DNA of 64,000 nt from contig OX638149.1 of the NCBI GenBank assembly GCA_951804945.1, forward strand, positions 60,884,001 through 60,948,000, written 5' to 3'. A program made the position numbers and the translations under genes. Shown one piece after another: positions 13,915 through 63,959 of the stretch. The stretch comes from Podarcis cretensis. Its lineage: Eukaryota. The notes below the pieces were generated by a model, which was given only the letters and a program-made list of their open reading frames with translations, made no database searches and was not told the origin of the DNA. How positions within the stretch are numbered: the stretch's first letter is position 1; every line of letters starts with the position of its first letter.

Positions 13915-15376
13915 AATCATAGAATAGAGTCATAGAATCATAGAGTTGGAAGAGACCACAAGGGCCATCGAGTCCAACCCCCTGCCAAGCAGGAAACACC
14001 ATCAGAGCACTCCTGACATATGGTTGTCAAGCCTCTGCTTAAAGACCTCCAAAGAAGGAGACTCCACCACACTCCTTGGCAGCAAATTCCACTGTCGAAC
14101 AGCTCTTACTGTCAGGAAGTTCTTCCTAATGTTTAGGTGGAATCTTCTTTCTTGTAGTTTGGAGCCATTACTCCGTGTCCGCTTCTCTGGAGCAGCAGAA
14201 AACAACCTTTCTCCCTCCTCTATGTGACATCCTTTTATATATTTGAACATGGCTATCATATCACCCCTTAACCTCCTCTTCTCCAGGCTAAACATACCCA
14301 GCTCCCTTAGCCGTTCCTCATAAGGCATCGTTTCCAGGCCTTTGACCATTTTGGTTGCCCTCCTCTGGACACGTTCCAGTTTGTCAGTGTCCTTCTTGAA
14401 CTGTGGTGCCCAGAACTGGACACAGTACTCCAGGTGAGGTCTGACCAGAGCAGAATACAGTGGCACTATTACTTCCCTTGATCTAGATGCTATACTCCTA
14501 TTGATGCAGCCCAGAATTGCATTGGCTTTTTTAGCAGCCGCGTCACACTGTTGGCTCATGTCAAGTTTGTGGTCAACCAAGACTCCTAGATCATTTTCAC
14601 ATGTACTGCTCTCAAGCCAGGTGTCACCCATCTTGTATTTGTGCCTCTCATTTTTTTTGCCCAAGTGCAATGCTTTACATTTCTCCCTGTTAAAATTCAT
14701 CTTGTTTATTTTGGCCCAGTTCTCTAATCTGTCAAGGTTGTTTTGAAGTGTGATCCTGTCCTCTGGGGTGTTAGCCACCCCTCCCAGTTTGGTGTCATCT
14801 GCAAATTTGATCAGGATGCCCTTGAGTCCATCATCCAAGTCGTTGATAAAGATGTTGAATAAGACCAGGCCCAAGACAGAACCCTGTGGCACCCCACTAG
14901 TCACTCTTCTCCAGGATGAAGAGGAACCATTGATGAGCACCCTTTGGGTTCGGTCAGTCAGCCAGTTACAAATCCACTGAGTGGTAGCATAGTCAAGACC
15001 GCATTTTACCAGCTTCTTTACAAGAATATCATGGGGCACCTTGTCAAATGCCTTGCTGAAATCAAGGTAGGCTACATCCACTGCGTTCCCTTCATCTACC
15101 AGTCTTGTAATTCTGTCAAAAAACGAGATCAGGTTAGTCTGACATGACTTATTTTTCAGAAATCCATGCTGACTATTGGTGATCACAGTATTCTTTTCTA
15201 GGTGCTCACAGACTGTTTGCTTAATGATCTGCTCCAGAATCTTCCCTGGTATTGATGTCAGACTGACTGGGCAGTAATTATTTGGGTCCTCTCTTTCCCC
15301 CTTTTTGAAAATAGGGACAACATTTGCCCTCCTCCAGTCTGCCGGGACTTCGCCTGTTCTCCAGGAATTCTCAAAG
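13915..15376 (-). mobile_element. CR1 LINE, 5'-truncated, young copy with open RT frame and (TTCTATGA)-like 3' tail
   Basis: ORF 14002-15375 encodes [14 protein letters not shown]...[11 protein letters not shown]...[10 protein letters not shown]...[10 protein letters not shown]...[11 protein letters not shown]...WNLLP with no stops. Tail gaatcatag repeats at 13915-13943. Confidence 0.97.
14002..15375 (-). pseudogene. CR1 ORF2 C-terminal part (reverse transcriptase), lacking the endonuclease and a native start
   Basis: RT motifs are present. The first ~30 aa of the track ORF (15376-15468) come from unrelated flanking sequence. Confidence 0.9.
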
Positions 15377-15539
15377 GGATGGGAGGATACAAAGATTATG
15401 TCTAGGTTCACCACGGCTGCCATTGGGTCACCATCCAGAGGTTGACCAGATGCACAATTCCATCTCATCCAGGGAAGGGAATGCTACCAGTTGATGGAAA
15501 CCACAGGAGGGGAAAGTGCTCTTGTGCTCGAATCCTGCT

Positions 15540-18231: not shown

Positions 18232-18364
18232 CAGGCACGGGCAAACTTGGCCCTCCAGATGTTTTGAGACAATTCCCATCATCCCTAAACACTGGTCCTG
18301 TTAGCTAGGGATGATGGGAGTTGTAGTCCCAAAACACCTGGAGGGCCGAGTTTGCCTATGCCTG
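18232..18364. mobile_element. Palindromic hAT MITE with a perfect 8-bp TSD
   Basis: caggcacgggcaaacttggccctccagatgtttt...aaaacacctggagggccgagtttgcctatgcctg, with TCTTAGGC at 18224-18231 and 18365-18372. Confidence 0.9.
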
Positions 18365-18945
18365 TCTTAGGCAGTCAATGACCAGAACCTTATTCATGAG
18401 TTACTCATGTGTAGGGCCTTGCTATGTTGACAGAGAAACAGGGCTGCAATTTTAGGCCCCCCAATATGTCACTACACCTTTCTGTAAGAAATGGATGTTG
18501 CTCTTGGTGGTCTGCAAAGAATATCCAGCAGGCTCTGCATCATGGCAGCATCCATGCAGTGGACATCTGTGGATGCATACTGGCAACATCTATCAAATAT
18601 ATAGATGATAAAGCTCTGCATGCAGAAAATCCCAGATCTTAGCACCGGCATATCAAAGGATCTAACAGCAAAATCCTAACCATGTCTACTCAGAAAGGAG
18701 CCTTGTTGAATTCAATGTATCAGTTTTCCAGAGATTGATATTTTAGTTTTAGTTAGCAGAACTGGGCAAGACCTTTGCCCTAAAGACTTGGGGAGCCATT
18801 GCAGGTCAGAATAAGCAGTCCTGGGCTGGATGGACCAATGGTTTAACTCAGACCAAGATCACTTCATTGGTATTGTACCACTTAGTCAACTTCTGAATCC
18901 CTGCAAATGAGGAAGGAAAAGAAGTATATACAGCAAGCCAAGCCA

Positions 18946-18951
18946 TTTATT
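18946..18951 (-). terminator. Candidate SMIM38 poly(A) signal AATAAA
   Basis: tttatt on the plus strand about 600 nt past the stop, with U/GU-rich sequence downstream on the minus strand. Confidence 0.35.
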
Positions 18952-19556: not shown

Positions 19557-19688
19557 TCAAGAGTCCTTCCTCTTTTCAGGAAACCTACGGGACAGTTTGT
19601 AATCTAAATAAGCGCTGAAACAGGACCATAAAATGAATCGCGTTAATATAATTACAACCACTAAAATCATCAAAGGGCCTGATCCCAT
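19557..19688 (-). CDS. SMIM38: Small integral membrane protein 38 ortholog, 43 aa: MGSGPLMILVVVIILTRFILWSCFSAYLDYKLSRRFPEKRKDS*
   Basis: ATG at 19688 in strong context (A at -3, G at +4), TGA at 19559-19557. One hydrophobic helix plus a basic tail. The motif R-x-ILWSC-x3-Y(L/I)DY(K/R)L matches recalled human SMIM38, and the position downstream of and co-oriented with TPCN2 matches human synteny. Confidence 0.9.
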   Translation of the reverse strand: MGSGPLMILVVVIILTRFILWSCFSAYLDYKLSRRFPEKRKDS

Positions 19689-19695
19689 ATTTAAG

Positions 19696-19730
19696 CTATA
19701 ATAATGAGGTAACGGGGTAGGGGGAGGGAT
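19696..19730 (-). promoter_or_regulatory. Probable 3' splice site just upstream of the SMIM38 start codon
   Basis: Minus strand: atccctccccctaccccgttacctcattattatag|cttaaatATG, a pyrimidine-rich tract with AG 7 nt before the ATG. Confidence 0.5.
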
Positions 19731-20033
19731 ACTAATCCTACTACTATCACTGCTCTGGGAGATCTAATTATATAATGTCGTATTCAGGGCTGTGTGGCGG
19801 ATGGAGCCATTCCTGTAACATTCCAATCAAAGTGATCTCACTAGCATGTGAAGGAAGAGTCCAGCTGACAGATTTGGGACATGTACTATTTAGTCAAGAG
19901 GCCCCATGTACTATTCATAAAGAATTAACAACTCTTATATTGACAATGACATTATTGTCAGAAGGTCTTTGGAAGGGGAAGAAGGGGGGGGGAGCCTCCA
20001 TAAACTCTCTCTCACACACCCTGTGAAGTTAGA

Positions 20034-20036
<3 letters not shown>

Positions 20037-20082
<46 letters not shown>
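20037..20082. repeat. (CT)n microsatellite upstream of SMIM38
   Basis: Read directly. Confidence 0.97.
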
Positions 20083-20084
<2 letters not shown>

Positions 20085-21043
20085 GCCTCTTTTTTCCCAA
20101 TGCTGATGTAATCTCCAAACATCTCCAACAGCAGCTGCTTAGCGAAACCGGGCACCTTCTCCCTAGTCTTTTTCAGAAGCACACGCGGCACTTTCCAGTC
20201 CCCTCAAGACAATTGGGGCCTTTCTTTTGCCAATTAGCTATCACTTCAAGAGCCCCCGCGCTGTCCAACGGGCTCTTTGCAGGAAACAACACTGGAGGGG
20301 CTTTTTCTTTTCCTTTCCTAGACAAATTAAAAAGGAAAAAGGAGGGAGGGAGAAGAAGGGGGAAAGCAAATCAGAGCACAGAAACTTCCCAAAATGCATT
20401 GCTCATCAATTAGTCCAGGGCCGCATGCAAAAGCACCCATGAGAGTCAATCTCATAGCGAGGAAGAAGGCGGCCGGTGGTGGTGTGGTGGGGAGGGAAAT
20501 GCTCACTTTCTCTTTGGGAGACTGTTTCGGTCAGTATGTTAAGCAGATGTGACAGAAAAGACTGTTTGTTATAGCAAAGCTCAGAGTTACAAAAACTGTA
20601 CAAGAAAAGGAGTTCTTGGAAGGCTGGTCTTTGCTTCTCTGTGTTAGGGGCATTGTTATTTGTAGCAAAGTGAAATAGGAAAACGAAGCTTTGTGGGGCT
20701 TGATTTTGCTAACTATTGGTGAAGATAAATAGGAGGGGGACTTTGCAAAAGCCCTACTGTAGACCAGTGCAAATGAGACTCAGCTACTGTGCTTTCAAGA
20801 AAATAAAACAGGTTGGGTTCATGGGAAACTAGATATTGAGGCAGAGGCAGACTGAACCGTAGTTATTGCCTTAGTTGGTCTGCCATGGTAGGGTATGATA
20901 CAGCTACTTGGCCCATTGAAGTTTCAATTCCTTGAAAGCAATGGAGCTGAGGGATACGACTTTGGTTTATTGTAGTCCTCTACTCCAAACAAGGTGCCTT
21001 TTGGTCCCTGTCAGGACCAAAGGTCACTAGTTACCTAACTCTG

Positions 21044-21047
<4 letters not shown>

Positions 21048-21084
<37 letters not shown>
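21048..21084. repeat. (TA)n microsatellite
   Basis: Read directly. Confidence 0.97.
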
Positions 21085-21086
<2 letters not shown>

Positions 21087-24000
21087 TTATAAAAATTGCC
21101 CTTACATCAGGGATGGAGAACCTTCAGAAGTTGCAGGAGTGCAATTGCTGTCAGCTTTGATCATTGGCCATGCTGACTGGAGACTCTGCTCGCTGGGACT
21201 GATGGGAGTCCAATGGCTTACCTTGAGGGATACAGGTTTCTCATCCCTGCATTAAAACATATGGTTGGAGTAAATCTTTTCTTCACATATTGACCAAACT
21301 CATAACCAAACTCATAAACTGAGGTCAAGTCGGCTGGGCCTGTTGTTTACACTGTCATTTTGACAGGTTCAGATATCATCAGCTAAAGACTGAGCATTTT
21401 AACTGGAGCCCCAAGCCATGAAACCTCCCAGGCCCGTGTAGAGCTTGTCTGAGGACCAGTACAGGGGTCTTGTTTTAATAAAGTTATAAACGCAAACAAA
21501 AAAGCAGAGGGTCTCTGATGGGACCCCCTGGCCAGCTTAACCCTCCAAGGCCTGGGGCAAGTGTACCCAGCTGCCCGTCCCGTCCCATTCTCGCCCCCCG
21601 CACAGGCCTGGAGCTTCTCAAGAGGTAAGGAAGATTCATCTCCACTGCCCTTTCACATGGGTTGTAAATCCTCTCAGTTTCATCAAGGTTTCCAAAGAAG
21701 TTGTATTCATTTTGGTGTTTCGTTTCATATGCAATATGTACTGGTTTCAAATAATGTTTTGGTCTTGGCAATTTTGGGTGGTTGTAACTGCTTTGAGTTT
21801 AAGAAGCATGGGATCAAATTATAAATAAATCATATTTATTTACATATACAATTTTATTACTCAGATCTCTACAATAAAGTTTCAGAATGATGTAACATAC
21901 AAGAAAAAAAGTCAATACATATTACAATTTTATGGAAGTACAATAATCTATAGCCACCAGTCCAGTACTAGTCACACTTTAGCAGTACTTAGAAAACTCA
22001 TTTATAAAAGGTTCTAATTCATCCTGTCCCAAAAGGAACTAGTTCAAGTTAAAGCTCGTACTTTTATAAAACAAACTAGTTTGGTTCAAGTTCATCCAAA
22101 TGGACTTTTTAGTTCATGAAAGACTAATTCTTTGGAGGTGGGAAATCAGCATTCAGAATATGATACACTGAAGTATAGGGTCCAAAAGTAAATCAGGGGC
22201 TACACACAAGTAATAAGATGTCTAAAAGACAGAATTGTCTTTCCCCATAATTTTATTTCTATCTTGGAAAAGGCTTACCTGTTTAATTTCTGCCTGCTAC
22301 ACAGCAGGCACAAGACAGCGTTCACTTTGTTATTTTACCTGTACTTCACACTGCAAGCTTCCCCTGTTGGAAGAAAATGAATCTCTTCAGCAGAGAAGAT
22401 ACTGGAAATGCCTCATATTCCTTCTTTCTTTGCTTAGCAACAGTGATTTTGGTGACTGAGTGACCATAGCAACAGCAATACCTCCATATCTGCCTAATAA
22501 GACACATAATGTTGCCTCCATGTTTTGTTTTCTAACTTTCAACTGACACTTAAAAAAATATATATGAAAGCTTCCAGGCCTCCTACTGGAGGCAAGGGGT
22601 GGAAAAGGGGAATGAACATGAAGATTAACTAGAAACCATTCAAAGTTCCACCCCAAAATAATCCTTAATTCATCTTTAACTCATCCAGCAATAATGGGAA
22701 CTATTTTCAGGTGTAGTTCAGAGATTTTTGAACTAGTTCAGTGAACTTCATTAAACCAAACAGGTTTATTCCAACCGCTGCACTTTAGTCTATATCTAAC
22801 CCAGAATGAGGGTACTTAAGCCAACAGAGTTATGCAAACTTAATTCTGGGTTCGATTTAAGCCTCTGTTTTGTGTGGCTAGTGGCCCAGTTGAGGGGAAG
22901 GGGATCCCTAGATGCAATAAACACAACAAACACATTGTGCTTAATGGGGATCAGATGAGAATTGTATTAGTTCTCTATTTCTGTGTCAGGATAAATTCTT
23001 CTTATAACATATCAGTGTTGACCTCATTATTCACAATTATCCTGGGGGACGGATTATAACAGGTAGCGTTTTACAGTAATGGATCAAGTTACTTTTCTGG
23101 GGGGGGGTATATTCTATGGCTTTTGCACCACAGTCCCATGCATGTCTACGCAGAAGAAAATCTCATTAAGTACAATGGATTTCCTCCCAAGTGTATAGGG
23201 TTGCAACCTTAATGTCCAGCATTGACTTTTGCCTCACACCTCCCTCTTCTGGAATTGAAGATCCTTCCTCTGCTTCACCATAAGAAAGAAATATTCCCAA
23301 TATACTATGGTAATTTTAGCTCCGTGTATGAGATGGGAAATGCACACACTGGGAGATTCATGGGATGGGAAGCCCCATGCTGTACATCTTTGTCCAGATC
23401 CAGTAAGGCAGATCCGCGTGCACAGCTGATTTGAATGTGTATCTTCATCTGGATGGACTGTGAACATTATTATGCTTATCCTATCGAACTGGCTGAGTGC
23501 ATCTTTTGATGCAAATGGGGCTGCATGTCGCCCCCATTCCAGACCACCAGTTGTTATGTATAACTAGATCTCCTTGACTACAATGGGACTGTGGTCAATG
23601 TATGTCGTATACACCTCTGTGAAAAATGGTGATATACTCATAACTAATATATTGTCATAGTATCTTGATTATATGCTTTTTTTAAAAAAAATAACAACCA
23701 GATTCAGTATTTTTGATCTTCATGACCTTGCATTCAGGAGGAAGATACTTGAACAACTAATCAGAAAAATAATAATTACATTTTAGGTGGCCTTCAATTT
23801 GCAAACAAAAATTACTGACATTCAATATCAACAGTAAACAAGGATTATGTTCGGTATCAACTGCAATAGGTTCTAGTCCGTAAAATTGTGTGTGTGTGTG
23901 TGTTACAAATTTATTTTCCTTCTTTGTATTGAAATACTTACATTCTGCCTTTCCGCCTCATTTAAATTACCTTCAGGGTGCTTACAGCTCATAAGAAAAT

Positions 24001-48542: not shown

Positions 48543-49545
48543 CATAGAATCATAGCATTGTAGAATTGGAAGGGATCCCGAGGATCATCTAGTCCAAACC
48601 CCTCCAATGCAGAAATCTCAGCTACAGCATCCATGACGGATGGCTCTGTTTAAAAGACTCCAAGGATAGAGAGTCCACAACCTCCTGAAGGAGGCCATTC
48701 CTCTGTCAAACAGCTCTTTCCATCAGAAAGTTATTCCTGATTTTTAGTCAGAACCTCCTTTCTTGAATCCATTGGTTTGAGTCCTACACTCCAGAGCAGG
48801 AGAAAACAAGCCTGCTCCATTTTCCATGTGGCAGTCTTTAGATATTTGAAGATGTCTATCAGATCTCCTCACACTCTCCTCTCATCCAGGCTAAACATGC
48901 CCACCTCCCTCAACTGTTCCTCATAAGGCTTGGTTTCCAGACCTTTGATCATCTTGGTCGCCCTCCTCAACACACCTTTGAGCTTGTCAACATCCTTCTT
49001 AAATTGTGGTGCCCAGAACTGTTGACTCCTGTTAAGCTTGTGGTCTACTAAGACTTCTAGATCCTTTTCACATGTACTACTGGCAAGCCATCTTATATTT
49101 ATGCAGCTGGTTGTCACTGCCTAACTGTAGAACCTGGCATTTGTTCCTATTGAAATCCATTCTGTTTATTTGGGCCCACTTCTCCAATCAGTTAAGGCCA
49201 TCCTGAATCCTAATTCTGTCTTCTGCTACCCCTCCCAGTTTGGTGTAATCTGCAAATCTGATGAGCACCCCCTCAATTCCTTTGGCCAAATCATATATAA
49301 AGATGTCGAACAACAATGGGCCCAGGACAGAACCCTGTGGCAGAACCCACACGTCACTTTTTTCCAGGCTGATGAGGAACCATTAGTGATCACTCTTTGG
49401 GTTCAGGCAGTCAACCAGCTACAAATCCACCTAACAGTTACCTCTTCCAGCACACATTTCACCAGCTTCTTCTCAAGAATATCATAGGGAGCTTTGTAAA
49501 AAGCCTTACTGAAATCAAGATTGACTACATCCACAGCATTCCCCT
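48543..49545 (-). mobile_element. CR1 LINE 3' fragment, degraded, related to the 14 kb copy
   Basis: catagaatcatag tail. Colinear with 13920-15090, with remnants [13 protein letters not shown]...GMFSL, frameshifts and an internal deletion. Confidence 0.92.
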
Positions 49546-61705: not shown

Positions 61706-61784
61706 TCATCTACATAGATGCATATGTGGGTGCTGGTGAAGTTTTTCAATTAGCTCTTCTTCTGTAGGTTCTTCCAAAACATCC
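61706..61784 (-). CDS. TPCN2: TPCN2 last coding exon: (R)DVLEEPTEEELIEKLHQHPHMHLCR*
   Basis: Acceptor tgttttgtccttctag, phase consistent with the upstream exon, TGA at 61708-61706. Matches recalled human C-terminus [25 protein letters not shown]. Confidence 0.96.

Positions 61785-63800: not shown

Positions 63801-63959
<159 letters not shown>

Follow-up and report, generated by a model that had tools for sequence, protein, structure and literature searches.

A conserved C-terminal lysine in the lizard microprotein SMIM38 is consistent with a COPI retrieval signal

The 64,000-nucleotide stretch of the Podarcis cretensis genome analyzed here (contig OX638149.1, positions 60,884,001 to 60,948,000; hereafter the window) carries on its minus strand a coding sequence of 43 residues (19557..19688) whose product ends in two lysines close to the stop codon. 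The question raised by this locus is whether the tail is a COPI retrieval signal and, if so, what kind of protein carries it. The coding sequence occupies one exon and begins in a strong start codon context (A at -3, G at +4). The minus strand at 19557-19574 reads AAGAGGAAGGACTCTTGA, which translates directly to K-R-K-D-S-stop. The preliminary description of the locus, which gave SMIM38 ending in KRKDS with Lys at -5 and -3, is therefore correct on this point. The candidate retrieval signal (19557..19574, minus strand) comprises Lys39 (-5), Arg40 (-4), and Lys41 (-3).

The first protein search with the lizard frame returned eight matches, all eight named small integral membrane protein 38. These reptile proteins show local identities of 85-98%, with a best E value of 1.2e-20, and the nearest named relative is a lacertid lizard protein at 98%. 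A profile search reaches primates and the coelacanth, and database records also cover amphibians and reptiles. By sequence, the lizard frame is the ortholog of the already annotated SMIM38 gene, and the P. cretensis genome contains one copy. Human SMIM38 (SIM38; rat Rmt1) shares the helix, the single coding exon, and the TPC2 neighbor with the lizard protein, though it has 51 rather than 43 residues. Its C-terminus (P0175) is KPKQD, as the preliminary description had stated, and the same sequence appears in the PMC6886504 supplement, whose available part also gives a single coding exon, orthology to rat Rmt1 with peptide support, and conservation as "mammals". Searches for remote relatives were unproductive. 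A profile search over 1.84 billion representatives gave 14 matches, all SMIM38-like, with distant families absent; comparison with PDB chains, run to E 10, gave none. The best ESM Atlas scores for lizard and coelacanth SMIM38 (0.84 and 0.78) are at chance level, Foldseek found no match to the SMIM38 model in the PDB (the method is uninformative for a single helix), and a homotetramer prediction computed without an alignment scored 0.03, which speaks neither way on self-assembly.

Taken alone, the lizard KxKxx is mildly unusual and constitutes weak evidence, with a chance level of 2-4%. Two of the 535 ATG-initiated frames of at least 25 residues in the window end in KxKxx, one being SMIM38, and shuffling of the tail yields KxKxx in 1.8-3.8% of cases and KxKxx or KKxx in 3.4-7.3%. 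For comparison, the available part of 10.1101/2021.09.03.458953 counts 119 KxKxx or KxHxx C-termini among about 6800 human membrane or secreted proteins. Because the motif in a single sequence is only mildly unusual, the case for a COPI signal is built on conservation.

The conservation set consists of 139 SMIM38 orthologs with an organism name, the lizard protein included. Protein and profile searches and a first round of clusters supplied 92 of them (one profile search contributing through 120 listed of 129 matches), and a second round of clusters supplied 47; the two rounds covered 15 clusters, one of them in part. The set leaves out 32 unnamed SMIM38 records, all 32 with KxKxx; P0126-P0128 (RxKxx, KxKxx, and a 192-residue form with a different end); the unnamed P0178-P0180; and P0050 and P0155, which are unrelated misfiled cluster members. 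The 192-residue record, P0128, has a degenerate SMIM38-like start followed by an unrelated long end and is possibly a frameshifted copy. Changes were counted by parsimony on a hand-written species tree.

Lys41 at -3 (19566..19568, minus strand) is the one constrained residue among the last six. It is kept in 130/139 named orthologs and in 112/114 amniotes, and Arg occupies the position in none of the 114 amniotes. Parsimony assigns 5 changes to -3, versus 32 to -6, 22 to -5, 27 to -4, 23 to -2, and 21 to -1. The preliminary description had staked its reading on conservation of both lysines; the one at -3 is indeed retained, but the one at -5 is present in only 76 of the 139 orthologs. KxKxx is found in all 17 squamates, 47 of 49 mammals, and the alligator, as well as in 3/45 birds and 2/24 amphibians, the mammalian exceptions being two New World monkeys with RxKxx. 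Strict KxKxx or KKxx tails together account for 87/139 orthologs (birds 16/45, amphibians 5/24). Most birds have Arg or Lys at -4 in place of Lys(-5), giving KKxx or RKxx, many frogs have RxKxx, and the coelacanth has KKxx. In 126/139 orthologs, including 44/45 birds, one of the positions -4 and -5 next to Lys(-3) holds a Lys or an Arg, and in 4/139 Lys(-3) is present but neither position is basic. What the tail conserves is thus not KxKxx but Lys(-3) paired with a second basic residue at either -4 or -5, and few independent events lie behind the apparent trade-off between -5 and -4. The C-terminal residue is acidic in 108/139 orthologs and Ser in all 17 squamates, P. cretensis included.

Nine orthologs (P0009, P0039, P0031, P0101, P0172, P0173, P0165, P0166, and P0170) are without Lys(-3), namely both turtles and 7 of the 22 frogs. 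Lys is found at -2 in both turtles, and the frog residue is Trp in four species, Arg in two, and Ile in one. We note that the turtles belong to the softshell group and that three ranid frogs also carry a Trp21 to Gly substitution. Fourteen orthologs have longer tails; Lys is still positioned at -3 in 10 of them, including all five mammals, and the four in which it is not are all frogs.

This pattern can be compared with the binding rules of the coat. The available passages of PMC3521961 identify the -3 Lys and the free carboxy terminus as key determinants of COPI binding, state that beta'-COP does not accommodate Arg at -3, and report weak binding (about 160 micromolar) of a STKLL peptide, which has no second Lys. 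The introduction of the same paper describes lysines as strictly needed at both positions, and this weakens the case for the RKxx forms of birds and the RxKxx forms of frogs. Both forms are termed proven variants in PMC5798408, in a second-hand statement after Ma and Goldberg 2013 within the part available. An acidic last residue is reported to strengthen alpha-COP binding, and 24% of the dibasic tails of human proteins have one (10.1101/2021.09.03.458953, available part). Lizard SMIM38 has two residues between Lys(-3) and the stop, and a second Lys at -4/-5, the latter shared by 87/139 orthologs across the family; on its sequence, then, it has the features expected of a dilysine cargo. The conservation pattern likewise matches the COPI determinants as far as sequence can tell, with Lys(-3) retained, no Arg there in amniotes, and a variable second Lys.

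Known dilysine cargo (Wbp1 and Emp47 of yeast, as well as OST48 and ERGIC-53; PMC3521961) shares with the lizard protein Lys(-3), a free C-terminus, a second Lys (at -5 here), a single helix, and a cytosolic tail, the last being predicted for SMIM38. SMIM38 differs in having no luminal domain, since only five residues precede its helix, and in a second basic residue that, depending on the lineage, is Lys or Arg and stands at -5 or -4. A dilysine tail alone does not fix residence in the ER, as illustrated by yeast Emp47p, which ends in KxKxx yet is Golgi-localized according to an abstract-level source.

A retrieval signal of this type must face the cytosol, and the predicted topology is compatible with that placement. 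Hydropathy predicts a transmembrane segment at residues 6-24 (19617..19673, minus strand); the best 19-residue Kyte-Doolittle window scores 2.57, starts at residue 6, and marks the sole hydrophobic segment, after which a charged tail of 19 residues follows. The AlphaFold2 model consists of one helix spanning residues 4-35 (mean pLDDT 80). Pro37 (-7; 19578..19580, minus strand) lies past the predicted helix end, with Pro at -7 in 128/139 orthologs, and the tail beyond it is predicted to be free. Net charge is negative before the helix in 131/139 orthologs and positive after it in 125/139. This bias predicts a luminal N-terminus and a cytosolic C-terminus, in agreement with the earlier placement of the tail on the basic, probably cytosolic side of a single helix.

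The helix itself contains the most conserved positions. Arg17, inside the hydrophobic segment (19638..19640, minus strand), is Arg in 138/139 orthologs and Lys in one. Cys23, near the predicted cytosolic edge (19620..19622, minus strand), is Cys in 136/139 and may be a palmitoylation site. Both exceed the tail motif in conservation. Parsimony counts no change at L6, one each at R17, L20, and W21, two at S22 and D29, and three each at F18, C23, and L9, and the variable positions 8, 12, 16, 19, and 26 lie mostly on one side. Conservation along the helix is most strongly periodic at 94-98 degrees, short of significance (permutation p 0.056-0.069); a conserved stripe (L6-I13-R17-L20-W21-F24) is suggestive only. 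The strong conservation of the helix, at Leu6, Arg17, Leu20, Trp21, and Asp29 in particular, suggests a membrane partner.

The reading that we favor, with a probability of roughly one half, is that SMIM38 is a COPI-retrieved single-pass microprotein of the ER and cis-Golgi that serves a membrane protein as its escort or accessory subunit. The terminal carboxylate would dock, together with Lys(-3), on the propeller of alpha- or beta'-COP, and COPI would return SMIM38 from the cis-Golgi to the ER. The conserved helix face would carry the function and the tail would set the address; Arg17 would probably find an acidic or polar counterpart in the partner helix. A gastric epithelial membrane protein would be a likelier partner than TPC2, because SMIM38 is expressed in the stomach in human and mouse (PMC6886504 supplement, available part).

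Of the alternatives, the one that survives best holds that Lys(-3) is kept for contact with a partner, for modification, or for its basic character, with no involvement of COPI and with the protein located elsewhere, for example in mitochondria. The limited extent of the strict dilysine (87/139) and its loss in turtles and several frog lineages that retain the gene are in line with this explanation, as is the arrangement of an N-terminal anchor with a basic C-terminal flank, which is also the mitochondrial signal-anchor pattern; several other small membrane proteins are mitochondrial. Lys31, moreover, is nearly as constrained as Lys(-3), with 6 parsimony changes, though it is not terminal. However, Lys31 tolerates Arg (93 K and 46 R among the 139), which Lys(-3) of amniotes does not, and the spacing of Lys(-3) is fixed to the stop and not to the helix in 10/14 length variants. 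The SMIM38 helix is also very hydrophobic (2.57-2.71), and high helix hydrophobicity favors the ER over mitochondria. We regard a function of Lys(-3) outside COPI as unlikely.

The conserved Arg17 also allows for an assembly checkpoint, in which the ER retains unassembled SMIM38 until pairing with a partner through Arg17 masks the motif and the complex exits in gastric cells, its destination being the surface or secretory membranes of those cells. An intramembrane Arg in 138/139 orthologs combined with a juxtamembrane Cys is reminiscent of subunits of multi-chain membrane complexes, in some cases with a dilysine signal that becomes hidden upon assembly (Fc-epsilon-RI alpha), and the weak motif forms of birds and frogs would suit a signal of modest strength. 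SMIM38 is also one of 75 co-falling genes, together with ATP4A, ATP4B, KCNE2, SLC26A9, and CBLIF, in the available part of PMC11675858. That list additionally holds pepsinogens and LIPF, and with its chief-cell and unrelated genes it may merely mark gastric gland tissue. We consider such a checkpoint, including the proposed destination, quite unlikely. Between them, COPI retrieval as favored above and retention until assembly put a working COPI signal in SMIM38, as read from the sequences, at about two in three.

The gastric connection can be pressed further. SMIM38 could be specific to the stomach and cycle through COPI while it escorts or helps to assemble the acid-secretion machinery, which it would bind via Arg17, and monotremes and lungfish could have lost it together with their stomach; the H+/K+-ATPase, KCNQ1-KCNE2, or SLC26A9 would then be candidate clients. 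We view this proposal, clients included, as improbable. Among the matches listed, the 139 named orthologs include neither a monotreme nor a lungfish, but ray-finned fish and sharks are missing as well, and the missing monotreme and lungfish records may reflect either co-loss with the stomach or the limits of search and annotation. We know of no description of a Vma21-like role for the gastric acid-secretion machinery. Vma21 has two helices, and the Pfam search of 49 orthologs gave no sequence relation between Vma21p and SMIM38. Even so, yeast Vma21p, a small membrane protein that carries a KKXX retrieval motif and is needed in the ER to assemble the V-ATPase, is a better model of how SMIM38 might work than the regulins are; human VMA21 is without the KKXX motif (PMC7483274, available part). 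As for the gastric cell type, five atlases of the stomach or of several tissues gave none: SMIM38 is absent from the searched parts of the supplements of PMC13689627, PMC10865703, PMC10319429, and PMC12513844, and among the rows listed of the PMC10236154 supplement it appears solely in non-significant ones. Mouse Smim38 falls in infected large-bowel tissue, as stated in the available part of PMC9871501.

An analogy with the regulin micropeptides had been proposed in the preliminary description, and neither the sequence nor the predicted topology bears it out. Regulins (phospholamban, sarcolipin, myoregulin, DWORF) resemble SMIM38 in being small, in having one helix, and in possibly regulating a larger membrane protein. 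They have a cytosolic N-terminus and a C-terminal membrane anchor, so they can display no cytosolic C-terminal motif, and the predicted orientation of SMIM38 is the reverse, with a helix from residue 6 and a 19-residue tail after it. The 23 Pfam families matched by 49 orthologs include no phospholamban, sarcolipin, FXYD, or KCNE. A match to SMIM15/UPF0542 (PF15086) was rejected, with E 0.018 and 15.3 bits against a cut-off of 27; it probably reflects composition, namely a helix with a basic tail. PF15086 is matched weakly by 12 of the 49 orthologs, with a best E of 0.0042.

TPC2 was considered as a partner on account of its location. An exon at about 63843..63935 (minus strand) matches human TPC2 residues 668-698 in a phmmer search (E 1.6e-8), which substantiates the earlier identification of TPC2 as the co-oriented neighbor. 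A putative last coding exon of TPC2 (TPCN2) lies at 61706..61784 on the same strand and is assigned from its position and from a motif that we take to be that of TPC2, whereas a database match identifies the exon at 63843..63935. A Pfam scan of 148 of the 320 minus-strand frames found no TPC2 exons, and they were located by motif and PDB search. The putative TPC2 stop (61706-61708) and the SMIM38 ATG are separated by 42,018 bases on the same strand, presumably as in human, where SMIM38 is downstream of TPC2 on the same strand.

The SMIM38 locus, though, appears to include its own exon about 1.5 kb upstream of the ATG. Contigs of three of eight runs guessed to be RNA (X2, X7, and X8) cover the coding sequence; such contigs carry no strand, level, or tissue information. 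An X7 contig, from a relative, joins 21222 to 20317 on the minus strand: it departs at 20319, and its 26 loose letters match 21224-21249 with 1 mismatch. The corresponding 904-base GT-AG intron (20318..21221, minus strand), with donor AAG/GTAAGC and an acceptor TCTAG/G preceded by a pyrimidine tract, is probably part of the 5' untranslated region. Coding sequence and junction are on separate contigs; provided that the spliced RNA carries the coding sequence, as we infer, the junction gives the locus its own upstream exon.

Several other features surround the coding sequence. At 19698, the ATG is preceded at a distance of 9 bases by a candidate acceptor that is unproven because contigs continue unspliced across it; use of this acceptor would remove nine upstream ATGs (frames of 5-36 codons) from the probable 5' leader (19689-20317, minus strand), which also contains a CT microsatellite at about 20040-20081. 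L-N-M is translated just before the start in several coelacanth, gecko, bird, and marsupial orthologs, a recurrence that indicates conservation of the bases just before the start. Contigs from all four runs of one comparison lie on parts of 20091-21430, and the coding sequence is covered by one of the four. A candidate polyadenylation signal, AATAAA (18946..18951, minus strand), is found about 600 bases past the stop, and an X2 contig spanning the coding sequence ends at 18950, a weak hint from one study in its favor. Elsewhere in the window, a stop-free frame of 493 codons at 14005-15483 (minus strand) contains a reverse transcriptase domain (PF00078, E 4e-30) and reads like what we take to be the 3' part of a CR1-type LINE. 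A smaller fragment is present at 49191-49382, and a short high-copy repeat at 18270-18365, with hundreds to thousands of contigs per run, is probably a SINE.

The functional link to TPC2 suggested earlier comes down to this adjacency, and a role of SMIM38 as escort or regulator of its neighbor is very improbable. Adjacent genes generally stay together in vertebrate genomes, and TPC2 is endolysosomal and widely expressed, in contrast to the gastric SMIM38 of the available PMC6886504 supplement. A TPCN2-SMIM38 chimeric RNA is tabulated in the available part of PMC8064075 but marked there as unconfirmed by Sanger sequencing.

Equally remote is the idea that SMIM38 loses its hydrophobic segment as a signal peptide, with the last ~18 residues secreted and the tail luminal: the hydrophobic run L6-T16 at the extreme N-terminus and C23-x-S25 (C-x-G in mammals), compatible with the -3/-1 rule for signal peptide cleavage, would permit it, but position 25 is Asn or Arg in 10/139 orthologs, the N-terminal flank is acidic in 131/139, and cleavage is unlikely because a human mass-spectrometry peptide crosses the would-be site uncut (PMC6886504 supplement, available part).

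In the literature searched, with subscription papers mostly outside its reach, nothing was found on the location, binding, or tail of SMIM38, searches for Rmt1 gave nothing relevant, and no function was found in print; the passages available of PMC6886504, PMC8064075, PMC9871501, PMC11675858, and PMC13718048 contain nothing on location or tail. As far as this search reached, the COPI-motif reading seems new to print. The retrieval signal is textbook and the gene is annotated, and little about the reading is surprising; a partner in the gastric acid machinery would change that. The result is a testable annotation of a known gene and not a new system. SMIM38 is a protein-coding gene kept from the coelacanth to human for which no published function was found, and its conservation now offers a probable address (the ER and cis-Golgi), a residue (Lys(-3)), a candidate face (the Arg17 stripe), and a tissue (the stomach). 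The SMIM38 tails, which include KxKxx, KKxx, RKxx, RxKxx, and motif-less forms, make up a natural series for the tolerance of coatomer, in which the turtle and frog proteins without Lys(-3) are natural controls for binding.
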